A DNA stretch of 64,000 bases from Marsupella aquatica. Its lineage: Eukaryota; Plantae; Marchantiophyta. Each line of letters opens with the position of its first letter. The stretch's first letter is position 1. Where the stretch lies: contig OZ316893.1 of the NCBI GenBank assembly GCA_973895155.1, positions 11,475,660-11,539,659 of the forward strand. Direction: 5' to 3'. Below, piece by piece: positions 24,761 through 62,294 of the stretch. Both the position numbers and the translations under genes were made by a program. The notes under the pieces were generated by a model. That model ran no database searches and was not told where the DNA came from. It worked only from the letters and a program-made list of their open reading frames with translations.

Positions 24761-26408
24761 CTACTTAATTTCGAGCACTTCGATTTCAAAAACAAGAACA
24801 GAGTTGGGCTGGATCCCCCAGGCCGGAAAACCTGAAGCTCCGTATGCATAATCAGGAGAGCACTGTAGAAAATACAAACAAGGGGTCAGCCGCTCAAGAA
24901 CAACTGCTGGAATACGAAACAAGGGGATAAACCTCAGAACGATCAACTTAATTGCTTCCCAAAAGAGTTCGACAATCCGACCCACACTCAGAAACAAAGT
25001 GCATAAAAGACCGCAAAGCAATCTCGAAGAGCTGTTCCACCACATGCCCTCGATATGAACTTGGGAACTTCATTTGTCAAAGAAAATCCAAACATTTCAA
25101 CTGCAACGGACCCAGCTCTAGCTCAAAGGGTGGAAATAGTCATCACTTTTCCCTGTTTTCAAAAGTGTGGAGTAATTTGAGTCCAGTATGGAAGAACACA
25201 GGAGAAACGTACCTTAAGGCGGGCAACTTCACCAACGTTCATGCCCAAAACTCCCTCGTCCCATCCTGCACAGGCACGTTTGATTAGACTCGTTTCCAAA
25301 AGACAGATTCTACAACAAAACTCTCATAGACCAAATGACCAGTTAAATTTCTTTGGAAGATGGCCGCTTGCAGGACACGGATTTGAAAGCAGAGACTAGA
25401 CTATAAGTTTCCAGCACTCGCTTCCTGTAGACCGTTAACGTCCAGTCCTACTTCGTGACCACCCCAACGAACAGAAGATTCAACACAAAATCCGAGAAGA
25501 AACATGTAACCTATAATGCTTTGCCAATCTCGGAAAGTCATGCTTCTCCCTGACAATCACATCTTAATTAAACCTTCATTTTTGCAGCACATCGTTGTCT
25601 GATGGGCAGGTGCATACCTGCAATAACCTTCTTCCTTCCAATGGTAAACGTGAAGGGCTTCTGACCAGGATCCTTGGTGCTGCAAAGATAAGAAATCTGT
25701 GTAAGCATCAACAAACACACGCCGAAGTAAAGGAGAAACAACCGTCCAGAATGAGAAGCATCGATCCACCTTCTATGCCACAAGTCAGGACGTATGCACA
25801 ACCACAGATCTGACACAATGTGTACTTATAATTGGGTATCACGCATACCTCCAGAATTTCTTGGAGAGGTCTCTGTCCTTTCCTGCACAAGCAAAGTACG
25901 GTTCCGTCAAACCAAACCAAACCACACAGCTCCTCAATATACCCACAACAGTTGCAATGTGGTCAAATTTTGCGGGATCGCCAGCTTCACTTCGTGACAA
26001 CCTGCACCAGAGCTGAGGTCACAGGAGACCGTCCCCACTATCATATCGATCAAACACCTCCTTCACGGGGATCGTGAGAGCCCGACCGCCATCATCAAAG
26101 AGGGCCACCAAAAGAGCAGCTGACGGGCTTTCAAAGAAAGGTCACAATCACAGCGGAAGGCCGGACGTTGATGAAAACTGTTTGGAACATGAGGAAAGGA
26201 TAACGAGATGGATGAGCGAGTTTGTAAGTTCAGAGGCCTATCGAGAGAACAGGAAAGACCCAACAATCAAAAGAGTGAGAGAGAGGTGGAGAACGAAACA
26301 GAGCAATCCTTCACACTCACCGAAGCCAGTGCAGTGGACGGTAACGTCTTGGCCTGGTTGAGGCTTTGGGCCAGTCCCCTCCTGGAGGATTTCCTTCTCG
26401 AATCCCAT
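24761..26408 (-). CDS. FKBP12: Peptidyl-prolyl cis-trans isomerase FKBP12, 5 exons
   Basis: Exon 1 26408-26321, then exons near 25882-25849, 25680-25619, 25266-25214 and 24862-24761, giving [112 protein letters not shown], with the plant-type Cys pair. An in-frame upstream ATG lies at 26555. Confidence 0.96.
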
Positions 26409-39199: not shown

Positions 39200-40973
39200 T
39201 CTTCTTCTTTTTCTTAATCATGTTGGAAGGGGGAGGGAGGGTGCCAAAGAGCCAGGATAGGAGACTGGAAGGAGAGAAAGGTAGGGCACATTAGAGGAGA
39301 TTGAAGAGAAAAAGGAAAAAAAGTGAGTTTCTTTCCCTCCATGTAGCAGAGGGCGACCACACTTGACCCCGTAACACCCCAGCCGCCGCCCCATCTTGAG
39401 TTCACTCCCATGCTCTCACCCTCGCCCACAACATTGCTTCACAATAGCACCTTGGGACATGCTTTGCCTCAACATCTTTGCCTCGACTCGACAATTTTTC
39501 TCGTCTTCACATATTTTTTGTCTTCTTGGCATTATCTCCTCAGCAACTTTTATCATATTGACATGTTTTCTCTTCTCCTTGACATCCTTTTTCTCACCTC
39601 AATGTTCTTTTCAATCTCACGTCGACATATTTTTCTCACCTCGACATCTTTCCTCTCCATTTCACCTTTCCTCTCCTCAACATCTTTTATCACCTCAACA
39701 TCATTTTCTCACCTTGATAAATTTTCTCTTCTTGACATATTTTGTCCTTGGCATCTTTTACTCAGCTCAACATCATATTCTCATTTTCACATATTTTCTA
39801 TCATGGACATGATTTCCTCACTTTAATATCATTTTCTCACCTTGACATTTTTCTCTCATTAACGTTTTTCTCACCTCAACATCTTTTTCTCTCCTTGACA
39901 TCTCTTCCTCACCTCAACATCTTTTTCTCACCTAACATCTTCTGTGCAACGCACGGGCATTGGGCTATATATATTGTGCCAAAATTAACATGAGATTTTC
40001 ACACCCATAAACTATGACAAATATTACTATGGGTTTTCACCACAATTGTCTTACAAAAATTGACTTTTATCATCCTTGGAAGCAAATCAAAGAGGGGAAG
40101 AGGCAAGGAGAAAGGGGAAGGGGGGCACATGGATGGGAAAAGAGGGAGGGAGAGGCTTCATCTTGTCCCTTCCGGCCACGGGTAAGGGTGGAAAAAGTGT
40201 CAAGTTTATTTTCTCACCTCAAAATCTGTTGCTCTACTTTACATATTTTTCTTCTCAAAATCTTTTTCTCCCCTTTGCACACGTTTCTCTCCTCAACATC
40301 ATTTGTTCACCTAGACATATTTTTGCTCCTCAAATTTTTTCTCATCTCAACATCTATTTCTCTCCTCAACATCTTTTCTCTCCTGGACATATGATTCTCA
40401 CTTCAAGGACATCTTTTCTCTCTTTGACATCTTTTTCTCTCCTTGACTTCTCTCTCCTGGACATATGATTCTCACTTCAAGGACATTTGTTCTCTCTTTG
40501 ACATCTTTTTCTCTCCTCGACTTCTTTTATCACCTCGACATCTTTTCCTCACCTTGACATCTTTTCTCACCTTGACATCTTTTCGCTCCTTGATATCTTT
40601 TATCACCTTGACATCTTTTCTCTCCTCGATATCTTCTATCACCTTGACATCTTTTCTCTCCTGGATATTTTCGATCTATCACCTTGACATTTTTTCTTTC
40701 CTCGACATCTTTTATTACCTCGACAGATTTTCTCTCCTCGACATCTTTTATCACCTCGACATCTTTTCTGTCCTTGACATTTTTTTGCTCCTTGACATCT
40801 TTTATCACCTTGACATCTTTTATCTCCTCGACATCTTTTATCTCCTCGACATCTTCTATCACCTCGACATCTTTTGCTCACCTCAACAGTTTTTCTCTCC
40901 TCGACATCTTTTATCACCTCAACATCTTTTCTCTCCTCTACATCTTTCGTGCAACGCACAGGCATTGGGCTAG
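39200..40973 (+). mobile_element. Non-autonomous Helitron remnant with CT-rich minisatellites (5' boundary uncertain)
   Basis: Helitron-type 3' end: hairpin cgtgcaacgcac(a)g + gcattggg + CTAG|T at 40948-40974; a second degenerate end (gtgcaacgcacgggcattgggctat) at ~39943-39968. Confidence 0.7.
40205..40946. repeat. Minisatellite, ~18-20-bp unit (tcacctcgacatcttttc); a more degenerate array lies at ~39460-39941
   Basis: Dozens of cct(c/t)gacatctttt variants; explains the repetitive LDIF/RCQGD ORFs in the track. Confidence 0.92.
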
Positions 40974-42166: not shown

Positions 42167-45100
42167 TTACACATATGCAAATTTGCGTTCATCCAAAGTC
42201 TTCCGAGTTCGTGCCAATTCATCGATGTCATGGACAATTTTGAAAACAGCATCTGGTCGTCCCAGCTTGGCTGCATTTTGGGCCATTTCCTTGAACTCCG
42301 CAGCCTTTGGACCAAACCAATCAGCTACAATGGAAGCAATCTCTTGGGGCTTCTCACAGAATTTTCCTGCAGCATTCTCAACCACAAATGATACGTTTCC
42401 CACTTCCTGCATGTCAACCAAAGTCTATTCAGTTCCATAACTCGGTATTGCCAACCAAATTGGTTGGTCTCTGGCAAGTAAATTGTTTCATTTTATGGTA
42501 CTTGCTTCAAAACTAGAGCAGGATGTTCAAGTATACTGAAAGCAGCCACAGCAATCAGAGTACATATCTCGGGATGCCCATGCAACACAATTTAAGCTAG
42601 AAGTAAGTTCGTGAATTACCTGGCCGGCAATGTAGCTATTTAATATCATTGGTAACCCGCAGATCATGGCCTCAGCTATTGTTCCTGGTCCAGCCTGCAT
42701 CCAAACAGTTACTCAATGCCGATGCTCGTACTTATAATTACTTAATTCCATCTCCAGCAAGACTTATCCATACATTCGCAATATTGGACTACACGCATTT
42801 GGGTATATGCACGAAACCAAAGAGACCATTTAGAAAGAATATTTTAACTGCTCCACAATGACAGATTCTTAAGATACGTCTTAACAGAGTAAAATTCTTT
42901 ACTACGTGAAGGTTTAGCCCTGCTTTCCCCCAAAAAATCCAACAAAACAAATAAGCTCATGCTTGAATTTCGCATCAACGGGGCGCCACATCAATAGTGC
43001 CCTAGTTTTTTTAATCTGTAAAAAGGCAGAAATCTGATTGTACTTGAGATATTCAGGACGTGGAATTTTTCCGGTACCTTGGTTATAACACAATCACATG
43101 CCCCCATCCAGTCAGGCATGTTGGTCACAAACCCCTGAATCTGTTTAATGGACAAGATTCCAACCTTTGGCCATCAGTAAGATATTCATTAACAATTTGG
43201 AGAACCTTATTATCCATTTCTGAGTCTGTCCTACAACTACAAACAAGCGCACATAAACCGTAACCCACTAAACCCAAAAGGGCCACGGGAATCGAGAGAC
43301 AACCAGCAGACAAGGTCTGTGAAGCATCGTAAACAACTAGCACAAGGGGTGAGGATTTAAAGCAGGGATACCTTTACAGGTACAGTCCAATCAAAGGACT
43401 CCAGCTTGCTGACCAGCTTCTTGTTTCGCCCACAAATGACTACAAGCTGGCCTATGGGTTTTTTCGAGTCCTGATCGTATAGTGACTCCAGAAGAGCATG
43501 AGCGGTTGTCTCCACTGGACCCATTCCTTCCCCACCTCCCATAAGAAGAACCGCCGGCAGATCATCTACTAGTCCCAGTTCCTTCCGCAGCTGAGCCTGA
43601 CAAGTGGCAAAAGTGCTAAAATGCTCTCAGTTGCACATACTAATTAAAAAGTAATATTTCAGGAACAACCAAGTTATTTGGCGAGGAGAACAGTGGTCCG
43701 AGGTTCTTTTCAGAAGTTTCCAGACGAAAACACGGGGATCTGGTTCTCCTGAGGCTCTCGACACACTGGTAGGACACCTGCATGATGTTATCTATCTTCC
43801 ACCAGTTCTACGAGCAAAATCAAATTTTTGCGCCACAGAGGAAATTAATGCTCTGAATTAGGGCATAGTTTGTTTAATCTATACAATGGCTGCCTCTTTC
43901 CTTGAATTGATATTAAAAGCAACAAACGTAAATTCAGAGCATCTAATGCACAACTGTATAAGCATATCATCACATTGGAGTCGGCTTTCCTAGTCATAAT
44001 AGTCATAGTCACTCACACAAAGGGTTCCAAGGTTACGTAAGTCGACGAAGGGCCTGGATAGTCCCAATCCTCAGTACGTGCCATCTGAAACGACTAGTAA
44101 ACATCAATTCCAAAACGGAGCTATTTTACCTGAGAACGAAGAGACTGACTGAAGCCAGGTCTTATCGGTAGACCGTATACACGCAGCTGTGATGGACGTA
44201 AGCCAGCCTTGAGAGCGCGTCGCTCCACATCTTTGGTTGGACAGAAACATCTTGTGACTGATCTATGAAACCTGCGGGTGTCGCTTACAAAACGTACGGC
44301 TTTAGCAAGTATCGATGCCTTCTCATAGATAGAACATGTAACAACTGGACGGTACCAAACACTGCACAAAGATACTACAGACAGCTGCTACAATATGCAC
44401 CGGATAGTAGAAAAAGGTGAAAACACCATACCATGTGGGATGACAAGTACTGAGATCAGTGATAACGGTGGTGAAGGGAATCTTGCCCAAAAGTCCTTTT
44501 GCCCTTAATATTCGCAAGGGAACATGTTGCATAAGTGGATGTACGCTCACAATAACATCCGGTTGGTACTTCAGCAGCCCCTTAGTCACCTCTCTGACTT
44601 CCCATCAGCATTCCCACCAACTCAGGGTGTAAAAATTCAGTCCCAGAACATTACCGATTTAGCAACTGGAAACAAAAAAAGCAAGTACAGATCCCGTTTT
44701 TCCTCCACATCCTAGCTCAGACATGAGAAATGTCAACCTTTGAAACCGTCAGTTCCCCATTAGTGGACGAGAAATATTTATCATAGTCTTGAACAAATCT
44801 CAAACACAAGCCCGTCCAGGATGGTAGTACCGGGCAATGAAAGTCGACGTGGCAGCCATCTGAGACTGATGAATGAAGCGTGGGGCTGTGCTATGGTATG
44901 CAAGTTTCCAGAGCGCCTCATGCTTGACCATAAAACTGTATGTTTTTGGCACTTGATTGAACGGCCATGGGGTGTAGTCTTGCCATAAGTCGATGATAGT
45001 CACCTGAATCCCCAACAAGCGGCCAATATACCATAATCACTTCAGCTACAGTGGTGCATATTCGATCCGTCATTACATCGTACCAGAGGAAGCGTGGTGT

Positions 45101-46673
45101 ACTACTGTTCTTAGTTCCCGCTCTGGATTCATGCACAAACTATGAACAGATTGAGCCAGTAGATCAATAAACACCACTTCAAAAGGGAATCTGAGAACTC
45201 TATCTGCCATTCTCTATCAGTAAGGAGACAACCAAGTGAAATGGGAGTTTGCTCCCGAGGGATCCCCATTCGTGCTCTACAATTTTCTAATATAGGCAGA
45301 AGGATTGCCAATATCGTAGCAGAAGAGGAAGGACAAAAGATAGGGTAGGGCAGCAGCCCAACATGACGTAAAGAGACTTGAAATTCCGAAGCGGAAAAGG
45401 AATTCGAAACCCTTAAAAAATATACCGAATCCTACATGAAACAATTTCTGGACAACGGATCAGAAGAGTTACGACCGAAGTTGCAGTTTTCTTAGATTGA
45501 AACAGAGAAGACTTCAGAAAGAATGGACGTCATTTGAAAGCTCTTCACATGTTTCAAAAAACGAGCCTGAAGATCGGGAAGCAGAGACATAAATAATTCA
45601 TCACGAATTTAACAGACCAGCAACCGCTTTGCTTTGGTTGACCTTTAGGGCTAACACCTTAGCGAGAGAATGGGACAGAGTAATCACTCGCCTTATACTC
45701 GTCACCGAACTCGAGTTCGAAGGTCGCTTTTATAGCCTCAGCAGATGCACGATGCCCCCCACCAGTGTCACTCATTAGAATGAGAACTTTTTTGAACCTC
45801 CGCGGTTCCAGTTGTAAGGCTCCATCATCCTCCGTCACAAGACCTCCGTTTTCAAAATTTTGGCCCCTACTAATATCGTCCCTACCAAGCAAGGCTCCAC
45901 CAAATGGGACTCCTCCCAAAGGCACCCGTTCGGTTCCTCGTTTGATCAACCTATTTACCGTCTCTAAAAGCCTGGCTTGCCTGCTCCTTGCCCCTTCTAA
46001 CCCAGCTGTTACTGAAGCAGCAACGAGACACTTTTGCCCACCTAAAATCCCAATCTGCTTGCTCTTCCTCCCGCATGGATTCATAAGATTCGCCCGCCTG
46101 ATGCTAGAGCCATCTATCCACAACAAAAGCCCACGCGTGCGTTTAGCGGAGATGTTACTGAAGAGATGTCTACATAGAAGTAGACATTGCGTGATACGCC
46201 CAGCTAGAGCTCCCAAAATTACACGGTTAGCTATAATTACAGCTCGCCAACAATGGCCCGTGCAGTCAGGCCTTTACAATGCAACCAACAAAATTTGTAA
46301 CGACAGTAATGCATTATGCACAGAAGCCCTGAAGACGACCCATGCAAAAACCAGCGGGAGGGAGACATCTGAATGTGAATTGCCCGCAACAAAAGGTCCA
46401 AAGTTTCTCAACCCATCGATCTCGCTGCAGCTGCCATTAAAGCACAACGACTATTTCGGATACAAGAGAGCATAAAAGCACGAGGGAATCAAAGAAGGAA
46501 CGATTTTACACATAAGGTCCCACACAGAGCGAGGAGGAAGAAAGTAAAAACAGAAATGGAGACAAAAGCAGAGAAAATGCCTCACCGAAACCACCAGGAA
46601 GGACTGTAGCGACTGGGCCTAGGCAAGGCTTAGGGCCAGTGCCCTCCTTAAGGATCTCCTGCTCGAATCCCAT
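42167..46673 (-). CDS. MGD1: Monogalactosyldiacylglycerol synthase (type A, MGD1-like; GT28)
   Basis: [109 protein letters not shown]. Approximate exons: 46113-45692, 45003-44831, 44593-44432, 44271-44130, 43596-43372, 43140-43078, 42694-42620, 42406-42167. The start is uncertain: either the FKBP12-like exon 46673-46586 or the internal ATG at 46084. Confidence 0.93.
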
Positions 46674-46947
46674 GACGTTTACCAATTCGAGATGGGCACT
46701 TGCGGCAATCGGCTATTTCTCCTTCCTCCCTTGGGCCACGACAGCTGCTACGATTTCCGAAGAAAACGTCATCCCAACAACGCAAGATGGCACCCGAGAG
46801 CCAGAGGCCATGGCGTTGTATCGTCTAGCAGACGCTCTTCACTTCCATTTCAGACCCACAGTAGATCGATCCCTTCTCTCCTTTCTCGCTCTCTCGGGTC
46901 CTGCAGCTCCTGATCTGGAGATTACAAGTCAGAGCAACATTCAAACC
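46344..46947 (-). other. FKBP12-derived 5' cassette, copy 1 (leader + 88-nt exon 46673-46586 + intron start)
   Basis: Exon encodes [30 protein letters not shown] (19 of 29 residues identical to FKBP12 exon 1) and ends G|gtgag; collinear with 52345-52940. Confidence 0.9.
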
Positions 46948-47389
46948 TTCTCCCTACTCCTTTGTCCGGTTGGGTGGAGGTTGGGATAGCGTGGACCACG
47001 TCAGCGGATTTCCATTTGGCTGATTGTGAGAAAACTCCAACTGCGGCACTGCAGGTACTGCCGTACTGTACTATACACAGCGTCCCAGGCTTGGCATTGT
47101 TAACCACGGTATGACACTACAGTAGTGCTGACTTACGGTAGCCTAAACAGTACAGCAGGAGTGATTTACAGTAGCCTAAGCTGAAACACCAGTGCGTTAC
47201 AGCAGCCCCTTTATGAAGAAGAAGGAGAATGATACGTGAGTCAACATTATTTTAACTCCAAAGGAGCCAAAACCCATCCATTTGACACCCGAGTGGCCAA
47301 AACCCAAAAGGACACGAGAAGATAAGTTGGCTAGACCGGCGAAGAGGCAAAGAAAACGAAAGGAAGGAACGGAAGGTGACCACCGCACA

Positions 47390-47428
47390 GAGGAGAAGAG
47401 AGGAGGAGAGGAGAGGAGAGGAGAGGAG
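47390..47428. repeat. (GAGGA)n microsatellite in a 5' leader
   Basis: Directly visible pentamer run just before the ATG at 47440. Confidence 0.85.
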
Positions 47429-47439
47429 ACGCAGCAGCT

Positions 47440-48003
47440 ATGGCGTCGTGTTCAGCAGCAGCAACGATGCCGAGCGCGCAGACGAGTGGACGCAGCTTCA
47501 GCGGATTGAGGTCGGTGTGCCCATCCCGCAAAACTGCTTTAGAAAATGTGTCGTTCGTCAAACACCTCAGAAGCAACAACAGCAACAGCAGCCAAAGGAT
47601 ATTTGCCGAACCTCCAGACGGGAAACCAACAAGTCCCTTCACTCAAGTTGGATCGTCTAAGCCAACGGCTCCACCAAATCCTTTCAGGAAAGCTCCTTTA
47701 ATTCCGGCTGATTGGGAGAAAGCAGGAGCTAGACCAGCAGGTTCAGGGAAGAGAGTATTGGATGCTTTCAAGGAAGGAGAGAAGACGGGCACCACAACCA
47801 AGTTCGGGCAACCTATGGTACCTAAGAATATATTTGATGAAGTGAGGCGAACACCAGAGGAAATTGCCGCGGATGCCTTCAAGTTTGAGATAAGTCCTGG
47901 GCAGGTCTTCTTGGCTGGTTCATTTCTGGTAGTTATAGCGATTATGTTTGGCACCGTTTTCCTCGTATGGAAAGTGGGTGCCATACACTTCAATGAATAC
48001 TAG
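47440..48003 (+). CDS. Uncharacterised plastid-targeted protein with C-terminal TM helix (187 aa, single exon)
   Basis: Transit-peptide-like start MASCSAAATMPSAQTSGRSFSGLR; TM VFLAGSFLVVIAIMFGTVFLVW; C-terminus KVGAIHFNEY*. Confidence 0.8.
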   Translation: MASCSAAATMPSAQTSGRSFSGLRSVCPSRKTALENVSFVKHLRSNNSNSSQRIFAEPPDGKPTSPFTQVGSSKPTAPPNPFRKAPLIPADWEKAGARPAGSGKRVLDAFKEGEKTGTTTKFGQPMVPKNIFDEVRRTPEEIAADAFKFEISPGQVFLAGSFLVVIAIMFGTVFLVWKVGAIHFNEY

Positions 48004-50959
48004 GTCTTTTTGCTATTCCTCTAGTCGGCTATGAGGGAGGATAGTAATACCCATGTACATATAAACGAGTCGCTGGTTCTATCTTGCTCTCAATATTAAT
48101 GAGTCGCTCCTTCTATCTTGCTCTCTGGTCTAATTGTGTACATCGCAAGCATGGCAATCCAATTTTGTGAAAGCAGACGAGTCTGCACATCTTTGATCTG
48201 ATCAGTGATACGGACTTCTATCTGTTGATTCTCTGCTTGGTTTGGACTGTTCCTTGTCGTCAATTGCCGTCTTCGCATCGCTGATGTGTGTCCATCATAA
48301 TTTTGAGAGGACATGATCCCCCCAGTCACCAGGAGAGTTGCTCGTGTAATTCAAATTCATGATCTCGTACATCCACGAACTTGCAGAATTTACACTCCGG
48401 AATATAGTTACCATCTTCAAAGGTTCAAAGTGGACAGTACTCCGGACCTGCCTCCTCTGTGCGCAGACGATTCCGCACAAACTGCGCCTTGGCTCTTAGA
48501 GTAGAAAAAATTTTCACAACTAATTCAGATTCCTTATTTGGGGTTGAGTTATGTAGGCAATAGTAGGAGCTGAGAATGATCAAACCAGTTCTCGATGAAA
48601 TATTTACTTTTACAGAAACACAGTGTTCTACTCTACTTTGAATCTGAGAGTGATCTTTGGGCAACCTACTAGAGCGCTGGTAGCTTCACATTCACGATCT
48701 GATGACAAAAATGTATGCATGAAAGACGTCATCCATTCCTAAAAGCTAGGAAAAACGACCGGTCTCAAGGAGAATAGCAGAACAATATCTTGGTCCAAGA
48801 TTTGAGGTTTAAGTGCCTTACGACAGCCCCTGATTATTCATGTAACAAAAAAAGAGCAGAGATATGGACGAGTAAATATCATGTGCCAGCCTTCCAGCGC
48901 TCTGAAAGAGTGAGAAAACGTGTGCTAGGAAATCATGGGGGATGGGTAACAAAGTCCCCGGCAGTACTAATGACAAGATCAATTCTGAGCAATTGCTAAT
49001 TTCCTTGGTTTACTGGGAGAATAATTACCTTGAAATGATTGTGCTACCGTTCGAGTGCAAGTTCTGCTGACCGGGTCAAGCTCCCCATTGCTACGTGACT
49101 CATGGCTTATGGGAGATCAGAATCACGATCTTCTGACGGACATTATAATCGATGCACTTTCTATGCCTGTCGAAGCAAATTGTTTCTCTTTGTACACGGC
49201 AGTGCTTTCCTTCATCGTGGCGATCACTGTCCTTCTCGATGAGAAACATGAACTCTACGGATCCAGTCCTATGCCTCCTTTGGATTTCTCAGACGAGCAC
49301 CGCATTTTGATTCGGCAAACAAGCCAGGCAATTTCGGCTACAGAGCACGATGATATCAGCCATGACTTCCAGTTGTCCAACACTGATGACGGGAGGCACC
49401 AGAAGTTCGGAAATGGGCAAAGACCCACAAATCTTGTTGGCACTGAATATATCAGGGAAGATAACCGCGAGGCTGCAGATCCAGAACAGGCACGACATTA
49501 TTAGCAAATACCCGTTCAAATCGTCCTAGGTCTTGCTCATGAAGTGCAGGGGTGGTGAAAACCAATATCTTGGGAGGCCCTTGTTTAGAAAGAGTTGTCA
49601 TGCTCATTCTCTTTGGAGTTCTTTCTGCTCTTCCAGGTGGTGACACATTCCCTAAGTAAGCTTTCAAAATAGTCAAAATACTTTGGAGAGAGGGCCATGT
49701 GATGAAGGATACATTTTTGCGACAGCCCCGATGCAATTCAATGAAGACATTTTTAGGTTGGCAATTTTGATCATTTTGGTTCGTTGATAATGCTTCTTGC
49801 GTATTGCGCAAGGATAGATGCTGGAGTGGTCTTTTCACGTTGTGCTATTGGTGGAGTGCATTTGATGAGTCTTCGGGATCGCTGCTAGTCCAAGGTGATA
49901 CTAACGTTCATGAGGGATTGCCGCTAGTCCAGGGTGACCCAATATCGACTTTCACTTTGATGTCTCGGTAAGATTATGCATTCCAAAGCCTCAAGTACCT
50001 GGAGGCCACTAGCACTTTTGTGATCATTTAGTTCTGTTCTGTAAATTTCAATTCTTATTGTTCTCTGATTTGGTTGAGTTTTGTGTTCATTCTTTGTAGT
50101 TTGTATGTTTGTTAAATTGATGGTAGAACAGACACAAATGTGTTGGCCAGGCCTAGAACTAGAGATACAATGGCACAGTAGGGATTAGAGTGGAAGAGTT
50201 CACAAATTCCTGACTCGGAAATGGTTGTCATTATCACTGAAGTACAACAGAAAGTAGCCTCTTGCTCACCTCACCTCCCAATGATTGAGGCTCTCTCAAT
50301 GTGGGTAATCAGATTACAGATGGGATCGGCCGACTACATGGCTGAGACTTCAACTTGGGACAAGAGCTTTTTCCCTAAGCCACAAAATGAACAAATTTAC
50401 AGCCAAAACTTCCAGATTGGTCCCATATTTGATTCAGTAACCTCCGTCCATTTTCTCTGCTCATAGAAGTAAGAATTTATCCAGTCATTACGACTACAAT
50501 TTCTTTTGAAGATACGTATCAGAAACTATTGGTAAACGAAGTCCTGTTGCGCCCAGAAGATACCTCGTTACTGCTGTTCAGCAGCTTCAAGATGCCCATT
50601 TCCGCGCTCGTTGCTGCTCTTCAGCAGCTTTTTCAAGATGCCCATTCCGCGCTCTTTGCTACTGTTCAGCAACTTACTCAAGTATGCCCATTTCCGAACT
50701 ACATCGACTACAACTTTGCCTAGGGAGCATTTGGTCTTCAAGCTTTCAAGAGGTGGACATGTATTCCTGCAAGCCCCTATATCTGCAAACGTAGATATTG
50801 GGGGGCGAACCTGATAATTCAATTAGTTTTGGGGCAGGTTAGTATTTTTTACTATTTTGGGGGACAGGATAGTAAAAAACGGTTCCAAGATGTAGCCAAC
50901 ATGGCACTCAGCTTAGGAACCAGATTCGTTCTCTTTCTCTTCCTCTTACCACTCACCTA

Positions 50960-52681
50960 CTATTGGGCTTCAGCACGGGGCTTTCGTCTCTTCCTCTTGT
51001 GTTTGGCATTTTCTGAAACAGTGAGGCCCTTGTCCTTCAAACTCTTCAGCTTCAAATCTTTGCGGGCTTTCACTTTGTCCTCAAATCCACTATCGAGCAT
51101 TTTCAATGAAGCAACCCGCTTTGCCTTGTAGACCTTAGTGATGCCTTTCAAGACGGCATCCTCTTCCGTTTCATATTCGTCCAATTTCTTCCCAATGGCA
51201 GACTCGATCCTTTGAATAAGCTCCACATCATACTGGGTTACCAGACTCACAGCCAAACCTCCTCTTCCAGCCCGAGCAGTTCGTCCTACACGGTGAATGT
51301 AGTCCCGAGCAAGTCTCGGAAGATCATAATTTATGACCAGATCAACTGTCGGAATGTCAAGACCTCTGCTTGCCACATCAGTGGCAATCAGAATAGGCAC
51401 TTGCCCAGCTTTGAATCGATTCAGTGACATCAACCGCTGCTGTTGCAGTTTCATCGAATGCAGTGCAGTGGTTTCTATCTCCAGCTCTTCCATAATAAGA
51501 CTCAACAAGTGGCAGGTCCGGCAACTGGCAGCAAATATAATGACAGAACGTATAGAGAGCTCCTCCAGACTGGACAACAGATGCAGAAGATAGACGTCTT
51601 TCGCATTCGCTGGCATAAACATGTACTGCTGTTTCAAGGACGCCACTGTGGTGGACTTCTCATTACCCTGATAGAAAAATGGCTTATCCTTCCCAAGAGA
51701 CAGATCTTGCACAACTTTCAGGCTACTTGTCATGGTTGCAGAAAACAGAAGGGTTTGGCGCTTGGCCGGAAGGCTCTGCAGCACGGTCCGCATCTCACCT
51801 TCAAACCCCGCGTCCAGAAGCCGATCCGCCTCATCGAGAACGAGAAACCTAGTGTTGGAGAAGTACCCTGCCATGTCCTTATCATTGATGAGATGGTCTT
51901 TGATCCGGCCAGGAGTGGCAATCACAACATGAGGCCTGCTCATCAAAGCCTGAGCCTGAGTCGTCATGTCCATCCCTCCCACTGCCACCACACACCGCAG
52001 GCTCATCGTCGAGCCCAGCGCTTTAAATTGGTCCGAGATTTGGAATGCCAGCTCGCGTGTGGGAGTCATGACGAGAGCGAAGATGCCATAAGGGTCCTCC
52101 GCCAGCTTCTGCAGGATTGGAAGAGCGAACGCAGCGGTCTTTCCGCTCCCTGTCTCCGCCAACCCTAACACATCCTTCCCTTGCAACACCTGAGGAATGC
52201 ACTGCCGCTGAATGGGAGTCGGCTTCGCCATCCCGAGCTCCCTACACGTCTTGTGCAGCCATGGCGATAACCCTAAATTGGCAAACGAAACTCCTCCTCC
52301 TCTATCGCCATCGCCATCATCGCCATCGACTCCTTCTCGAACCAGCAAAAACCAGCGGAAGTGAGAAATCTGACTGTGAATAGCCCGCAACAGAAGGTCG
52401 GACGTTTCTCAACCATCGATCTCGCTGAAGGTGCCATTAAAGGACGACGACTACTTCGGATACATACAAGAGTGCATGAAAGCATGAATGAGAGAATTAA
52501 CGTATGAGTGATTTTACACATAACGCCCCACAAAGACGGAGCAGGACGAAAGTAAAAGCCAAACCAGAGAAAAAAGCAAAGAAAATGCCTCACCAAAACC
52601 ACCAGAATGGAGGGTAGCGACTGGGCCTGGGCGAGGCTTAGGGCTAGTGCTCTCTTCGAGGATCACCTGCTCGAATCCCAT
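50960..52681 (-). CDS. RH36: DEAD-box ATP-dependent RNA helicase 36 (DDX49/Dbp8 family)
   Basis: Q motif GMAKPTPIQ, AETGSGKT, PTRELA, TPGR, DEAD, SAT, ASRGLDIP, HRVGRTAR and the RH36-type tail KAKRVASLKMLDSGFEDKVK; the body 50960-52335 is uninterrupted. There is no in-frame ATG before the conserved FANLGL, so the start is placed tentatively in the FKBP12-like exon 52681-52594. Confidence 0.93.
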
Positions 52682-52940
52682 GATGTCCACCATTTCGAGA
52701 TGGGCACTTCCGATAATCGGCTATTCCTCGTTCCTCGCTTCGGCCACCATAGCTGCTACGATTTCTGAAGAAAACGTCATACCAACAACGCAAGATGGCA
52801 CACGACAGCCAGAGTCCCTGGATTTGTACCGTCAAGCAGACTCTTCTCACTTCCGTTTGTGAATTTACAGCAAATCGGTCCCCGTCTCTCCTCTCTCTCA
52901 CTCTTTCACATCCTGCAGCTCCTGCTTTGGAGATTACAAA
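52345..52940 (-). other. FKBP12-derived 5' cassette, copy 2 (leader + 88-nt exon 52681-52594 + intron start)
   Basis: Exon encodes MGFEQVILEESTSPKPRPGPVATLHSGGF/G (17 of 29 residues identical to FKBP12 exon 1) and ends G|gtgag; the leader shares ggacatcATGGGATTCGAG with FKBP12. Confidence 0.9.
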
Positions 52941-53375
52941 GCTCCTGCTCTGGAGACGACAAGTACCAGCAACATCAAACCCCAAGACCTTCTCACTGCT
53001 CGTGAACCCCTCCGGAGACTACAAGCTCCTGCTCTGGAGACTACGAGTCAGAGCAAACCCCAAAAACATTCAAACCCCAAAAACATTCAAACCCCCCGAA
53101 CTTAAAACCCCTATCGTGAATTTCTCTCTTCTCTCAATCTTTCGCATCCTGCAGCTCCTGCTTTGGAGATTACAAGCGCCGGCTCTGGAGACTGCGAGTC
53201 AGAGCAACATTCAAACCCCAAGACCTTCTCACCGCTCGTAAAACCCTCGTGGAGTTTTCTCTTGCTCGTAAACCCCTCCTGAGATTACAAGGTCCAGCTC
53301 TAGAGACTACAAGTCAGAGCAGTATTCTAAAACCCCAGAAACGTCAAACCCCACGACCTCAAACCCTTATCGTGA
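52912..53375. repeat. Degenerate repeat array (gctcctgctctggagactacaagtcagagcaac...aaacccc), several copies
   Basis: A unit present once at 46900-46947 is repeated multiple times here. Confidence 0.75.
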
Positions 53376-55287
53376 ATCTTCGTTTGTTAGTCTGTCAAGG
53401 TTGTGAGACATTTGGCCATAAACAAATGTACGTATTTTTAATTTTATTTTTCAGTACCGTAGCCTCTAGGGTGGCTCCTGATGGTCATTGCATCATGGTC
53501 ATTGCATCAATCTTTCAGGCAAAGAGTTATTAAGTACGAGCCCTATGCCCGAGCTTTGCAGAGTGCAATGATGGCTGGCCCACAGGGCCGGGGTGGGGGG
53601 GCGCTGAGAGCCAAGAGAGGGCAAGTGGTAATTCAAATCGAATAGATACACAAATCTTCTAAAATATGTAACGGCCAGATTTGATTCCTGTCAATTCTGT
53701 ATTTCATAATGGAACGAAAGACGAAAAAAGGCGGGATCAGCTATTATAGTTATAGATGATTTTGGTAGTCCTTTCTGTCGATAGCCCTTAAGTACTAAAT
53801 TAAGATCCATCAAAATTGAAGTGTGTCAAAGCACACATAAGGCCTTATGGCTAAAATGTTTTTGATGTACCATCCTTATTGGGTATGTATTTAGGTAGCC
53901 TATAGCATTTTTCCTGGCCAGAAAAACAATATTGTCCTTGCTTGCTTTGACACCTTACCCTGCTGGTGAGTCCATAAAGTGAGACAATAGAAATATAATT
54001 TTTCTGCAATCTGATTGGTTCTTGCAAAGTTTTGAATTGCAAAAATGAAGGGCAGCACTTTGAGCAGGACCCTGACAGCAATGGACATAATCACTGGCCG
54101 GGGCAGGGTTGCTAGTGTGTGGTTTGGAGCCTTTCTTTCTTTGGTGGCAAAATTTGTTGAAATTCCACCTCCTTCAAAAGCCATAGTTTCACACCTAGCC
54201 ACAGAGCACACCATACTAACCCAAATGTAAAAGTTTCCCTTAAATCTAGGGACATCTAACTGTCCCAACTTTATTTAGCTAGGAAAATTAGATAAAGAGT
54301 AATTTTAACATCTTCGTCCTTCACAAAAGGTGACATTCTAATCTATCAAAGTTGTTAGACAATAAATATTCTTAGCGTTCAGACTGGGTGACAGTAGCAT
54401 TAGCCACCTGGCCAAAAAGAAAAATGACCCTCGTTTTGGTGCTTTTCGCACACGCGTGCCCTGCGGTGGAAGACACGCTTGACGGGGTGACGGCGTGTGG
54501 CAGCTGCAGTTAACAGAACAAGTGGCACTGCTCCCCCTACTCACAAAGGCATGCCCGCCACAGACCACTCAATCACTCCACTTACACACAATTACACATT
54601 ACACATCGACGTCCAGTAGCACTGTAGTGTCGGTGTAAGATCCTCTCACTCTACAGGGGGACCCTGCTACCGTCGATTTCAAGCCTTCCAACCGCAGTTA
54701 GAGCACGACGTTGTCGAAACCGAACCTGCGATCCAGGAAATCACTACCCATGGCCTGAATTGTCTACTCCAGTAGACTTTTTCACGAACCATTCGTCTAC
54801 TGTAGTATGGGTTTGTCAATTTTGGACTACGGTGTGGTTTCATTTGGTACGATGGGGAATGGTGGAGGTTTAGTGAATGCCCCGGTCGGTCGTGTGCGGA
54901 GAGGAATCCTATGAGAATATTCTTTTCTTAACCGTCGGTCCGCTAACTGTGGCGGTTACGGTGTCATGACGGTGCGATGTGGACATTCGAAGACCTCAAC
55001 TCTGTGATGTGGTGACACGTCATACTCCTTCCGTTTATTCGAATGTAGTGTTCTGAGTTCGTGTCGCAAGTAAGGAATCTTCGTTGCTCGAAATCCGTTT
55101 CTTCCCAAATGTGTTCGCTAAACCCCTGAATCATTCGGAGTCGGACTGCTTCAAATCATCGGCTTCTGTGATTCTTCGAGTACGTGGGTTGATCGAATTG
55201 ATCAGATCGAGAAATGGGCCGCAGTTGAGGTCAGATCAGCTCGCAGTAAGAGGTTAATGCCTGTTGTCGAAATTAGGGATTTCGCCT

Positions 55288-55778: not shown

Positions 55779-58700
55779 ATGGTAGCCGAGAGCGTTCAGT
55801 CGTCTCGATCTGTATCTTCATATATGGTGCATCTATTAAGGTTGGACAGTGCGGGCGCGGTGAATTCTACTCAAGGAGGAGGTGAAGACCACCAGCAGCA
55901 GACGGACGCTTCAGCCTTGACTAGCAGCTTGGAGGAGAGAAATGGGCTTTTGGAAATGGAAGGACCACAGTTGAAGGATGTGAATATCAGAGAGAAAGCC
56001 GTCTCTGCTGCGGGGGCTGCCTTCCTTTCTGCCGTGTTGGTGAATCCTCTCGACGTTGCTAAGGTGTGTCTATCGGTCTATGTCTGCATAAGTTCCTTTT
56101 ATCTTCCGTCTTCTATCAAATGCGGAGTTTTGGGTTAGATTGTTTCCGTGAGTTTATCTCAACTTCAACGCATGAAAGTTAGCATATTCTATCCTCTCAT
56201 GCATCATAGTACAGCTTGTTCTCACAGAACATATGCGAATACTCGCCCATTGCCCGCTTATACATTCGCTCATACTATGATCTGTACCGCATTGGTGGTT
56301 TTGTAATGGGAAAGCATTCCAAGACTTGCTCTAGGCGAGGCTGGTTTCTCTGCCCGTTGGGGTGATGAGGGAGAAAGAAATTAGAGCTTCAGCCCTTAGA
56401 ATCCGCTTTACGCCCTCCGAACTCCGTAAGCTTTCTCATCGTGCTCATCCATAATGTGCTGCCCGAAGCAGGAGGTCTACGGCGAAAGTGGTGGCTGTGG
56501 AAGGCCATATTTTAAAGCTCCTGTGAACTAGGTCGCTGATCCACATTGTCGTATGAGATCAGCTCTATTCCCGGTTCTTGTTTTGGGGAGCAGCAAAGGA
56601 GCTCCTGTAGTTGCTAGGGGGAGAGTGGTCCCCCTGGTTGCGATGGATCTCATTATCCTGATTGATCCTGTGGGGCTATGAAACCAATCCTATGTGTGAT
56701 TCAATTGACGGAAGATGTAGTGATCCCTTTTGTTAGGTGATAAGTCGAGCTAAGCATTCTCTAGACGGGTTCACTTTTCTTCCCTTTTCTGACAGTGGGT
56801 CTGCTCAATTACTGCAGACTAGGTTGCAGGCGCAAGCAGCCGGTTTTGACTACAGCGGTAATGGGCAACTTCCAAGTTCAAGAGGACAAGAAAGGGTAAG
56901 ATTGAACGTAAACCTCTCCGTACTTCACCAGTTTGAAACGTTTCGCACAAGATTTAGATTGAGTCCATCGATTTAACATTGATAGTTCTTATCGAGGTCA
57001 GGTTTCTCATTACTACGGTCAGAGGGTCCTGGATAATGTTTACTTTACGGAACGATATGTTCTCCTCCAAAGGTTGTAGTTTGTAGAAGTGATATTCTAC
57101 TAAATTTTATTGAATCTCATGTTCCTCTGTATATCAGATTTTAACTGCTGGGAAATGCCCGCCTGTGTGTCCTCGCCTTGGCAATGCTGCACTTGCACCC
57201 CTGTGTGAACCAACATGCTTTCAGTACAAGGACACGTGGGACGTCTTTAGAAAAGTAGTTCGCCAGGTAAGCTGACATCTTCGAACATATACCTGAAAAT
57301 AATGTAATTTGAGACACTCGAAACATGGAGTTTTGATGGATCTGGAGAAACTGTTTGCTACCAGTAATCACAGTGCGTTTTCACCACTTTCTTTGGATGC
57401 TTTTGCATGAAAGAGTATTCTGTGTCTTGCTCGTTAATCATCCACTTTGAGACTGGATTCCCACTCCGTCGGTCGTTCTGACTCATTGCCACAGAATCTG
57501 TTCAGCAGCTTTTAAGCTATGATTTGATGGTTTATTTTGCAGGAAGGAGCCTTAAGACTTTGGAGAGGGACGCCTGCTGCCCTTGCCATTGCTATACCTA
57601 CGGTGACTCTCCTGACATTGCCTTATCTCCGTGCCATCGACATTTCATTTAATTTGAAGTTATCATGTTAAAAGATTTGACCTACTCTATACTTTCCTGA
57701 TGTGTTGTGATACCACTGGACATGGTCGGATAGCTACAAATCTTACTGATTTGGAGTTCTTGAGACACGTCTTGGCAGGTCGGTATATACCTTCCTTGCT
57801 ATGATGTACTGCGTGAGCGATTGGAGGATGCTGCCACTCACCACGCTCCACAGTTAGCTCCGTACACCCCATTTCTCGCTGGATCAATGGCCCGATCAAT
57901 TGCCTGTATTGTCTGCTCTCCCCTTGAGCTGGCAAGAACACGCATGCAGGTATAGATTATTGCTGGCACTTTTTGTGCTTTCATGAGCTCTACGACTACT
58001 GCACATCACCTTTATATTAGGCTGTCTAGGACTTTCAAATGTAGAATAGCCTGGTGTATCTCTTTAGGGGTTCTATAAGCTCCACTTGTGGCGATTGGGA
58101 TACTTTCAGATTGACGGTGTTTAGGCTATTTCCGACTTCTCAGTCAGGACGAGTTAATGAAGTATATGGACGTCAGGCCCTACTACTTCTTCCTGGTTCA
58201 GCGCACTCCTTTTACAAAGATGTGCCCGTAATCCAAATCTTACTTGAAGTGTCGTTTGTCTTCGAAACGTTATCTCATAGGCCACTGCCTGAACGTTTGA
58301 ATTAGTATTGTCTGTGTCCGTTGGCTGCAGGCTGCAAAACAGATACGTACTGGCGTAAAACCCCCTGGAGTTGTGGCAATTCTGCAAGGAGTTGTTTCGA
58401 CAATGACTGCAGCACAAAGCCCATGTAAGTATTACACAATTCTTGATTGGGACTGAGTAGAATGCTCTTGCAAGGGTTTAGAAATGAGGAAACTGCAGCA
58501 TCATGGTCGCCGATACTAGTCAAAAGTCTGTGGGCGTGAATTCTTTGCCGGGAGTAATATCTATTCTGCTTTGCACAGACCCTGGTTGCTCTCCCACCTA
58601 GCTTGTTCCAAGGGTACCTGAGAACTGTGATTTGTTTTGCAATCTTGCAGTGCAAGCAGTGCGGCTGCTATGGACAGGAGCAGGTGCTCAATTAGCCCGG

Positions 58701-59638
58701 GATGTTCCATTTTCTGCCATCTGCTGGGGTACTTTAGAGCCTGTAAGATATCTCATTCTTCACTGTACAACCCTGCAGTGCCCAGTGCTATTGCAGAGCT
58801 CTTATTTTCCTTCTATGAGATTGCTACTCATGATTTGAAGACAAATTCTCTAAAGTAACCATCACTCTAAAGGAAGTTGTTACCGTCATGCAGGCAAGAA
58901 GGCGCCTTCTAGATATGGCAGGTCCCAATCCAGATGCGTCTACTGTCTTGGGTGCTAACTTCTCGGCCGGAGTGCTGGCTGGCAGCATTGCAGCTTTTGC
59001 CACCTGTCCTCTGGATGTAGCCAAAACACGGAGGCAAATCGAGGTCAGCTTCTGATCATGATATTTTGATTGGAACGATGCAAGAGTACAATGCTCCAAA
59101 ATCTCTTCCAAAGGTTACTGTGTTGATATGTTGGTCTGCTCCGGGTTTTACTAGACTTGGAAAATCTGTCTAGAGGCTTGTAAAATTTTGGCTTTTGCTT
59201 GCTGTTATTCAAACTCAAGAACAAAGCCTTTTTGTATGTCAAAGGTGTGAAGTGTGTTTTGGAGGACTTTTTGTTACAATCATTTCATGAAATTAATTTC
59301 GATATTTGCAGCAAGACCCTTTGAAGGCGATGTCCACTCGACATACTTTACAAATGGTCTGGAGGTGAGTTCAAAGAAGCTGGCATGTGATGATTTTTGG
59401 CATTGTATTGTTCTTTGTGAGTCAATTACTTTGGAAGTAGGCCGCATTGTCTTCGGATCTGACTCTTTCGGCCGTTTCCACGTGACTGATGAAAATGGAA
59501 AATGTTGTGATTGTTAGGGATGCGGGTGTGAACGGCTTGTTCACTGGTGTTGTTCCGAGGGTAGCTCGTGCTGGACCTTCTGTCGCCATTGTTGTTTCAT
59601 TCTATGAAGTGGTGAAATATTTCCTTAATGGAAATTGA
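55779..59638 (+). CDS. MTM1: Mitochondrial carrier MTM1 (SLC25A39/40-like), ~10 exons
   Basis: Three carrier signatures: VNPLDVAKTRLQAQ, SPLELARTRMQ, CPLDVAKTRRQ; also Cys-rich loop CPPVCPR...CEPTCFQYK, EGALRLWRG, QLARDVPFSAICW, PRVARAGPSVAIVVSFYEVVK. Exons start at about 55779, 56818, 57138, 57543, 57779, 58331, 58651, 58894, 59311 and 59518. Confidence 0.94.
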
Positions 59639-62294
59639 GCTAGATCACACTCTCCAAGGAAACCCAATTTTGTGGGTAGCTGTCCAGATTGGAAAGCTCT
59701 CCCAGACTAAAGCAATTATACACTATAAGTCCTTATGGATGTAGTTGTGATGATCCAGAGTGTCGATCCACTGGGCAGCTGGTGCTGGACCCCAGTGCTT
59801 CTACGATGGTTTCGAGACGTATTTTATCGTGGTCAATGCTGAAGAAGTACATCCCAAGTTAGAAATTCAATCTTACAATGAACCACAATAGAAAGTGTTC
59901 ATCTCCAGACTAGAAACGGGAGATGAACCATTCAATCCTGAAAACCGACAATATTTGGATATACAACGAAAGTCGTCTTTACTTCGAGTGAGTCTTTTGG
60001 AGGCTGAGTAAGACAACGTCCAGTAATGAGCAAGTCGTTCACGGGTATATTCTTAGATTTTGGACTCGTTTAGATGATTAATTTAGTCCCTAGGGAAGTA
60101 CGATTTTGGTAGTATTTATCTTTTGGAGGCACTAGTGATTATTTTCACCGACACGTGCAGATGCACATGAATTTTGACGCCAGGATTTGGTCAAGAAGTT
60201 TAGCTTGATCACCAGTCAACAGAACGAATGAATAAAACAGAGAGAAACTATTACGCTGTAACAGTAGTCAATTGAAATTATTGAGGCAGAGTATTGATAA
60301 GTGTCTAGAACTTCTTGCGAGGATGTATGAGGTGAGTTCCAGAGCTTCACGTCGCCATCTGGAGAAATTTGTTTTACCACTTCGCGAGGTTGACTGTCAG
60401 CTGATGTTATGTGCATTATCTAGGGGAGTAAGAAGGTTCGTATAATTGACACTGTTGGTTGTTGACGGGGCAGTCTTCTTAGATTTAACAGCTGGTTGGT
60501 ATTATGATGTTCCAGTTTGGGCTTATTGTAGACCCTCTCTTCTACCCAGTACTGGCTTTGAGTGTCCTTCGCCTGTTAGTTCCGTGATGTCACCATCTGA
60601 AGAAGTAGATCACCTGCGTGCTCACGTAGTTGAAACTCCACGTCTAGTTGAAACTCCACGTCTAGTTCACCGTATTGTCCTTCTGCCAATGAATTTGAAG
60701 GGCTATGATTGCTTTAACTAGGCTTCCCAAGACGAGTAAAAGCAACAGCCTCAGCTCGTACTATGGCTGAAAAGAATGTCCTGTCCATCGTAAATAATTA
60801 TCGGTATGCCTAGATATGTGTTCTGTTTAGACAAGTGTCGCAGCGCTGGCCAAACCTGATCAGATACTGAGTGCACGATCTATCACGAAGTGCACATTGC
60901 CATGTCCAGGCTTGTCAAGATTCTTGACAGTGTTAGGCAATTAGTGGACTTTGTACGGATAGAATAGTACATTGCGCTGGTAAAGTAATTGCTAAACACA
61001 GTTATGAGTATAGCATGCCCAGTTCATCATGAAATGTCTTGCATGGTCCATCAGTGTCACAAGGCGGCTAGGTAAGAAACCATAATCAGCAAACACATGC
61101 CATCTGCCCTCCTCCCCTTGGGAATTTCACCTCAAAGGTGCGTCGTGCGAGACATGCATCATCATCAAACAACTTGGGTTTGCTCCCGGTTGTAAAGCTT
61201 GATGTACGAAAATGAGTATCAGACTGCGACCACACAGCTTTTATTACGGTCCCTACTGTTTTTTGCCCTGCTGGTACTAGAGGTTTTCAGCAGTGCCATC
61301 GTGTGCAGTCCCTCTCTCGAACTACTTTCGCAGGAGAAGCCGCTGTCTACATCCAAAAGCCCATAAATGTGAAAGCTAACCGACAATGTTTGCAAGGCAG
61401 TCTGGAAGGCTGTCCGTGAAGCTGGAAAGGGAAACTCTTGTTTTGGTAAATATCGGTAATCATGAAGTTTTTCCGCTGATACTGTGACAAATTGTATCAG
61501 TACAATCATGTTGGACGCAATGGATTGAGGTAAAAACCTCAGACTTTAACACCGTAGACCGCAATAATAGGTAGGATTCTACGGTACACCCTGGAGCCAT
61601 CCTTTCAGCACGACCTGTGTCCACCATGAAACAAAAACGAAAGGACAATCATGAACTTTTCAAAAAGCTTGATCCACTTCTCAGACATCAAATTTCGCGT
61701 CCACAAATTCCAATTATTGTCGGACGCCAGAGTCTAGTGTAGCTGTCCCGGTAGCTGTAGATCGATCACTGCAAAACGTCCCCATTCAATTTTGAGAAAT
61801 CTGATTGAACTTCCTCCAACGATGTAACACACAGCAGTGCACTTTGAAATTTGTGATGAGTGAAAGTGCTTTGATCGATGGGATGAAAATGGCGTTCGAG
61901 GCTGTCATCAATCACCGAGCGCCAAAACTTACTCCGGTCAACATTTGGCATCAATTTTGTCTCCGGCACTCTGTTTACCTCGCATTATACTCTGAGCTAT
62001 TGGTCCCTGAGAAGACCTATCACGTAGCATCTCCTAAAGCAAAACGAGTATCTCATCTTGCAGTGGACCTCGTCTCTCCACCCATTCCATCCATGGTCCA
62101 GAATTCCAAATTTTCCCCCGACGATTTCCAATTCCTCGAAACATGGACGAGAGTATAATCGTTCTCAGCCAGTGCCATAAAGTTGGGCAAAATGATCCCA
62201 TCCATTCGGGCAGTCGACGTCTCTGCACAGGAGCCCGTCACATGTTCGCTGTAAAGGAAGTGAGAGGGAATGGCGCGGGCAGGCCAGGTTAGGG

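Follow-up and report, generated by a model that had tools for sequence, protein, structure and literature searches.

In the window, by which we mean the whole 64,000-nt stretch of Marsupella aquatica DNA analyzed here, the DEAD-box helicase RH36 is encoded by what is probably a working, chimeric and relocated gene, and probably the sole RH36. Judging from sequence comparison, this gene is likely transcribed from a duplicate of the 5' end of the MGDG synthase (MGD) gene, with an FKBP12-derived exon likely supplying its start codon via predicted splicing.

Table 1. Positions of the features discussed, in window coordinates.
Feature	Position	Strand	Remarks
FKBP12 gene, intact	24761..26408	minus	5 exons, 112 aa; original exon source
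MGDG synthase (MGD) gene	42167..46927	minus	9 exons, 529 aa; FKBP12-derived first exon; cassette source
RH36/DDX49 helicase body	50960..52345	minus	Intronless, 5'-truncated; motifs Q, I, Ia, Ib, II, III, IV, V, VI intact
Tandem acceptors GAG (exon start 52335) and AAG (exon start 52332)	52332..52338	minus	In frame with donor 52593; predicted
Duplicated cassette	52345..52940	minus	Upstream region/5' UTR, FKBP12-derived exon, first 249 nt of intron 1
Candidate CAG acceptor (exon start 52369)	52369..52372	minus	Reads in frame from donor 52666 but not from 52593; predicted
FKBP12-like coding exon of the RH36 copy	52594..52681	minus	88 nt; ATG 52681; inherited GT donor 52593, phase 1
Candidate new donor CAG/GT	52661..52669	minus	First intron base 52666, phase 0; predicted
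Additional in-frame ATG	52691..52693	minus	RH36 copy alone; missing from the MGD and FKBP12 copies of the window
Upstream ORF in leader	52721..52780	minus	19 codons; also in MGD copy
Tandem amplification of a 45-60 nt unit	52894..53377		Unit single in MGD upstream region

The helicase occupies one stop-to-stop frame of the minus strand (52408-50960, 482 aa) in which DEAD and Helicase_C domains, motifs Q to VI and the upstream aromatic residue of the family are all found, together with a basic C-terminal tail. The best 120 of 4477 protein matches to this frame are RH36-like. Among named proteins it is closest to a pair from Calypogeia fissa (gene models CAM6114445.1 and CAM6118667.1), at 92% for P0001 and, in alignment A1, at 91% for both; those of Marchantia and Riccia follow at 73-74%. 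A 20-row tree makes the frame sister to C. fissa within plant RH36 with a support of 97/90, as expected for DNA of a leafy liverwort. A PDB search returned no DDX49/Dbp8 entry among 27 matches at 1e-60. By orthology, the protein would act like AtRH36/Dbp8 in pre-rRNA processing (available part of PMC5809497).

The conserved F-x-x-L-G-L of the frame lies 5' of its first in-frame ATG (52231). None of the nearby ATGs (52326, 52320, 52317 and 52311) shares the helicase frame, and their products have 12-17 aa. A first-pass annotation had described exactly this, a helicase with an intact, intronless body, no start of its own and a nearby cluster of out-of-frame ATGs, and all of its coordinates hold on recheck. 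Alignment with the C. fissa RH36 begins at about residue 42, and the preceding ~ 41 residues, including a P-L-I-F motif, are absent from the window; the missing N-terminus is also kept in the RH36 contig of a relative (X1). The strict plant N-terminal P-x-L-F motif is present in 99 of the 120 listed RH36 homologues. It is absent from the window's helicase frame and from every in-frame chimeric product of the window, and the extension that carries it is typical of plants but not required for the RH36/DDX49/Dbp8 family. None of the 120 listed homologues has an FKBP12-like start.

The sequence in front of the helicase is most similar to the MGD gene. Positions 52940-52345 match the MGD 5' end (46927-46344 on the other side of the comparison), ~ 6 kb away, at 81.7% over 596 nt (blastn), and match the FKBP12 gene over only 101 nt, at 78%. 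The blastn match stops at 52345, where an abrupt end of homology had been noted before, and gapped extension pushes the likeness to 52338. The earlier label of an FKBP12 cassette therefore needs correction: the cassette duplicates the MGD 5' end, and a direct copy from FKBP12 is rejected on the lengths of the two matches. Cassette and MGD differ by 17% in the upstream part, by 15% over the exon and by 16% within the intron; the alignment has 7 gap events, and the first 14 intron bases after the exon are identical. The exon occurs three times within the window, with equal length in the FKBP12 gene (26408-26321), as the first exon of MGD (46673-46586) and in the RH36 cassette. Its peptide is not conserved between the RH36 copy and MGD (9 replacement and 4 silent differences). 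A candidate fourth copy at 47400-47550 was discarded, as it scores 42 against a shuffle maximum of 39 and the region is the start of a separate gene. That gene (47446-48003, plus strand) is intronless and head-to-head with MGD; it encodes 185 aa, compared with 277-311 aa in most full-length relatives, and only its C-terminal part finds matches, one Sphagnum relative being named 'Chlororespiratory reduction 3' in UniRef.

Several features lie upstream of the cassette exon. The amplified unit is present 3-6 times and accounts for 11 of the 44 AAACCCY motifs in the window. Teloboxes are typical of ribosome-biogenesis promoters, and no exact telobox was found upstream of RH36. A high-copy repeat (53535-53820; depth of 200-450 in runs X2-X4) sits just upstream of the cassette, followed at 55779-59640 (plus strand) by a multi-exon gene that by eye resembles a mitochondrial carrier protein and has no match in the family search.

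The fusion of FKBP12 to MGD is real and older than the RH36 join. The first exon of MGD (46586-46673) is in frame with exon 2, and the splice itself is seen in a relative that is without the RH36 junction: a contig of X1 (organism A) joins 46586 to 46113 across GT..AG. Among the runs compared, X1 alone has spliced contigs; that it is RNA is a guess, but its contigs do skip introns. Both C. fissa MGD proteins begin with an FKBP12-like peptide, 18 of 23 residues being identical to the window's FKBP12, and the head is not found in the MGD of Marchantia, Riccia or P0144 (MGD, 70%). As X1 carries the splice and the C. fissa MGDs begin with the peptide, the FKBP12-derived exon works as a start exon of MGD. 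FKBP12 is a cytosolic protein without a targeting peptide. The C. fissa MGD has no further Met between its FKBP12-like head, which is rather acidic, and the catalytic domain, and this raises the question of plastid import with such a head. A candidate origin of the MGD intron from the ancestral presequence was checked with 3 proteins in 3 frames, and no likeness exceeded that of shuffled sequences. MGD intron 2 (45691-45004, minus strand), which the X1 contig skips, is a GC-AG intron. Elsewhere in the window there are a 344-nt inverted repeat of 96% with a degenerate tandem array (37074-38071 and 39456-40972; one frame weakly matches DUF7640) and a long, apparently intronless single frame with an elongation factor Ts domain (5036-6160, plus strand).

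The junction of cassette and RH36 is genuine and not an assembly error. A contig of X2, which may be the window's own source, equals the window over 47438-52938 with 0 differences and 0 gaps. The junction is also spanned in X4 (52143-52503, 0 differences) and X5 (52190-52503, 1 difference), which stem from a different study and organism than X2, so that three DNA runs from two studies bridge it. Bubbles of a second X4 haplotype flank the junction (depths of 34.7 and 34.9) with no branch at the junction itself; the RH36 contig of X1 does branch away, at 52310. Over 44500-54500, X4 and X5 (organism C) carry a pair of haplotypes, at roughly half depth, through MGD, RH36 and the cassette, as from a mixture or a doubled genome. 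An assembly frameshift hiding a true start at 52326-52311 was rejected, since the X2, X4 and X5 contigs are gap-free there and C. fissa shares the window's Asp/Gly run in the helicase frame.

The first-pass annotation had asked whether another, intron-containing RH36 exists. With a likeness threshold of 80%, X2, X4 and X5 yield no second form, and the depth over 52264-52317 at that likeness equals that of one contig (17.9, 64.3 and 70.2, respectively), which suggests a single copy, with the proviso that contig placement may drop records and contigs cannot prove absence, so a parental RH36 may have been missed. In organism A, the X1 RH36 contig (2109 nt, 78 differences over 50937-52310) continues off the cassette for an extra 450 nt that do not match it even at 80% and whose first letters resemble the C. 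fissa linker, indicating that here the MGD fusion coexists with an RH36 of normal structure. Because a further RH36, at ~ 82%, occurs in X1, the run may be a mixed sample.

A distinctly less probable explanation, though the strongest of the competing ones, takes the locus for a recent truncated copy that is silent or redundant, with a normal RH36 elsewhere in the genome. It would fit the higher depth over the RH36 piece in X3 (70.9, compared with 32-50 for the listed neighbors, in a run of very uneven depths) and an inherited donor whose in-frame acceptors are either weak or remove the conserved Phe. The single form found in X2, X4 and X5 argues against it, and so does the pattern of substitution. 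In the best 40 of 255 differences between window and contigs, chosen by support, the listed coding differences from X4/X5, which carry the same junction, comprise 8 silent and 2 replacement changes, where neutrality predicts 71-76% replacements (P of 3e-4 to 1e-3 for kappa 1-4). The two X1 contigs both depart from the window at 24 listed sites, with 16 silent and 8 replacement changes, and a further 5 listed differences, unique to the closer X1 contig, each replace an amino acid; the 29 listed X1 differences together give P <= 0.003. Among the listed differences from the junction carriers X4/X5, the helicase shows purifying selection since the join, as judged by silent and replacement counts.

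Conserved positions and evolutionary rates point in the same direction. Columns kept in at least 95% of homologues number 178, and the window differs at 9 of them; 7 of these departures are common to C. fissa and the remaining 2 are lost N-terminal positions, with no further loss at conserved columns to indicate a silent copy. The relative rate is 9-10 for the window against 10, pointing at no rate increase, and the end branch in the RH36 tree measures 0.051, compared with ~ 0.07 for C. fissa. Simulated neutral decay left an intact frame in 0 of 2000 runs at the divergence of the cassette, which counts against a silent duplicate only if RH36 arrived with the cassette. At lower divergence the frame survives more often (7% of simulations at 2%, 26% at 1%), so the argument depends on the arrival date of RH36, and survival at 1% favors the silent duplicate.

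A working RH36 raises the question of where translation starts. An unspliced transcript of the cassette contains 16 ATGs before 52231, none of them reading into the helicase, so splicing is needed. In the 12 introns of FKBP12 and MGD in the window, the acceptor is CAG in 11 and TAG in 1, with GAG and AAG in none, and GAG acceptors are very rare in Physcomitrella according to the available part of PMC3095350. With a rough scoring matrix built on these 12 local introns, the pair of donor 52666 and CAG acceptor 52369 ranks first at 13.0, with a predicted product of 474 or 478 aa. The inherited donor 52593 scores 8.0 with the AAG acceptor and ~ 4 with the GAG acceptor. The GT at 52666 is specific to the RH36 copy, being at exon position 17 and derived against FKBP12. 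Further in-frame acceptors exist at 52407, 52329, 52299 and 52272; the last, a TAG, is in frame but deletes the conserved Phe. Joining donor 52593 to the CAG acceptors at 52424, 52373 or 52369 leads to a stop after 46-79 aa, and much transcript may thus be wasted. In favor of the GAG/AAG pair there is a switch from U-rich to purine-rich sequence at 52345, and CTCAC, a motif common by chance, occurs ~ 25 nt 5' of the tandem AG with no AG between.

The first-pass annotation had proposed the GAG/AAG pair as the acceptors of RH36, in phase with the 88-nt exon. The phase is right; their actual use is doubtful, because none of the 12 local introns ends in this way and a canonical in-frame pair exists. 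The predicted pair 52666/52369 takes about half of the weight in our estimate; donor 52593 joined to AAG 52332, or to a different phase-1 acceptor, comes next. Whichever route retains the upstream Phe, the predicted product has 474-511 aa and a complete helicase core. The ATG lies in the FKBP12-derived exon in every workable predicted route, so a start supplied by that exon, as claimed before, is the simplest reading even if the proposed acceptor is wrong.

Two further explanations dispense with the borrowed start. In the first, an improbable one, the gene works with its FKBP12 exon unused, a transcript begun inside the old intron being read from a near-cognate codon (CTG 52345, TTG 52348, ATT 52369 or ACG 52405). 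Several such codons lie in the helicase frame, which is open from 52408, and two DDX49-like metagenome proteins (L004, L014) have a Met within ~ 4 residues of the Phe, indicating that a short N-terminus can suffice. However, the cassette has retained its ATG, exon length and donor, a leader begun at the cassette's likely start meets the 16 non-productive ATGs noted above, and a new internal promoter plus a non-AUG start would be needed, with no sign of either. In the second, which we regard as very unlikely, translation begins at ATG 52231, the sole in-frame ATG and one of good context, giving a 423-aa helicase without its Q-motif cap. Such a protein would lose the isolated Phe (codon 52285), which caps RecA domain 1 as described in the available part of PMC7912733. 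The F/L-x-x-L-x-L pattern of this region is present in 119 of the 120 listed homologues, the codons 5' of 52231 are still conserved, and five out-of-frame ATGs (52326-52262) lie just upstream.

The chimera with a borrowed start, our preferred reading, places RH36 at a new site. RH36 and MGD lie on different sequences in C. fissa (8.9 and 7.8 Mb vs. 46.8 and 25.0 Mb) and likewise in M. paleacea, R. fluitans and R. sorocarpa, as judged from sequence sizes and accession numbers rather than gene order, so the place beside MGD is likely derived. Insertion of the cassette into RH36 at its native site, with the ancestral first exon farther upstream and spliced across the cassette, would require no relocation, but it has very little chance of being right given this separation in four liverworts, the divergent gene ~ 2 kb upstream and the failure to find a remnant of the ancestral first exon above shuffles, the N-terminal 45 residues of C. 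fissa scoring 42 against the six frames of the window (shuffle mean 39-40, maximum 47-48). A synteny search via the neighboring gene gave no C. fissa protein among 8 matches or their listed members.

The order of events that we infer would start with the copying of the FKBP12 5' UTR, exon 1 and donor onto MGD, the older step common to C. fissa and organism A. A second copy of about 600 nt of the MGD 5' end would then have arisen 6 kb away and been fused to an RH36 copy from another locus, which had come by an RNA or a DNA route and lost ~ 41 N-terminal codons. Recruitment of a cryptic acceptor and loss of the parental RH36 would complete the series.

The odds between an RNA and a DNA route are about even. 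The first-pass annotation had spoken of a retroposed or 5'-truncated RH36; truncation is borne out by the N-terminus kept in C. fissa and X1, and retroposition is not established. The Sphagnum-like RH36 gene L028 has five introns and the window none. The leafy-liverwort RH36 P0002 (JGI contig, 1483 nt) is unbroken across all five of these moss intron positions, so the introns may have gone long before the move. P0002 breaks only at the window's C-I-P-Q / V-L-Q near the Q motif, where its sequence looks like the end of an intron; neither of the Sphagnum-like loci, L028 and L030, has an intron at this point. No poly(A) remnant, searched as a run of at least 7 A on the sense strand over 48000-50960, was detected, and it may have decayed. 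A 7-nt repeat occurs at 52345 and 50923, with none of at least 8 nt and ~ 2 such 7-mers expected by chance. The flank right of the RH36 insert does not continue the MGD intron. A metagenome scan (best 80 of 500) contained two Sphagnum-like RH36 loci and no leafy-liverwort one.

The join itself may have left a trace. The last 14 nt of the cassette (52345..52358, minus strand) recur unchanged in the MGD intron. Read in another frame they spell P-L-V-F-A, resembling the P-L-I-F-A of the lost RH36 N-terminus, a likeness noticed post hoc. Patterns of the P-L-x-F-A type occur 4 times in 128,000 positions, two of these being the cassette copies. Donor 52593 with CAG acceptor 52369 reads this frame and reaches its stop after 46 aa. 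As a lead, we propose that the join occurred by microhomology at the motif, giving a chimera in frame at birth, with a later linker deletion shifting the frame and a new donor restoring it. A programmed frameshift that would carry ribosomes out of the motif frame and into that of the helicase was set aside a priori; a G-GUU-UUU is present, but also in the MGD intron, and frameshifting at this heptamer needs viral proteins. Taken to its furthest, which we put forward tentatively and hold less likely than its negation, the FKBP12 first exon would be a portable starter, reused twice within 30 kb to open three unrelated proteins in three compartments (FKBP12, plastid MGDG synthase and nucleolar RH36); the sole essential helicase would depend on it, and a microhomology join at P-L-x-F-A would have been in frame at once, the new donor later re-tuning the frame.

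AtRH36 is required for female gametophyte mitosis, which its loss disrupts, and for rRNA maturation (available part of PMC5809497), so a sole RH36 copy should be essential. If the preferred reading is true, an essential single-copy helicase was relocated and given the promoter region, start codon and N-terminus of a neighbor's already chimeric 5' end, and RH36 persisted despite losing a motif that is conserved all the way from Klebsormidium to flowering plants. One small clade would then allow tests of the need for the plant RH36 N-terminal motif, of cryptic acceptor recruitment after fusion and of the import of a plastid enzyme headed by an FKBP12 peptide. Gene finders are likely to mis-annotate the RH36 locus. 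In the literature covered (titles and abstract openings, with most subscription journals outside the scope), no FKBP12-MGD or FKBP12-RH36 fusion was found.

The class of mechanism, chimeric and orphan relocated genes, is already well known; what sets this case apart from the textbook ones is that a single exon was reused in series and that an essential single-copy gene was likely replaced. In the window, parts of two genes are joined in DNA with a predicted in-frame splice route, and RH36 is 5'-truncated at a new location, the latter judged indirectly. On these sequence features it probably fits a chimeric, probably orphan, relocated gene, and we do not class it as a retrogene.

The host part of jingwei is itself a duplicate, as in the RH36 cassette. 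Like jingwei, TRIM5-cyclophilin A and the chimeric retrogenes of rice and Arabidopsis (available part of PMC5470649), the window's RH36 is an intronless, relocated, 5'-truncated copy joined to a neighbor's 5' exons. Unlike them, its exon is second-hand (FKBP12 to MGD to RH36), an RNA origin is only one candidate route, and the product likely keeps its old function rather than gaining a new one. Orphan retrogenes are retrocopies that replaced their parent (Ciomborowska 2013, cited in the available part of PMC5470649), and RH36 resembles them as an apparently only copy, strongly conserved and in a new place; it differs in its swapped N-terminus, and the loss of its parent is a reading of the contigs. 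By similarity and tree it is the orthologue of AtRH36/SWA3, OsRH36, yeast Dbp8 and human DDX49 (available part of PMC5809497), without the plant N-terminal extension and its P-x-L-F, and without the five introns of the Sphagnum-like gene.

Organelle-targeted genes are known to take a first exon from another gene by exon shuffling. The FKBP12-to-MGD step is alike in that a foreign exon heads the presequence of a plastid enzyme, and unlike in that the donor FKBP12 is itself cytosolic and without a targeting peptide, and in that the same FKBP12 exon was then passed to a nucleolar protein.
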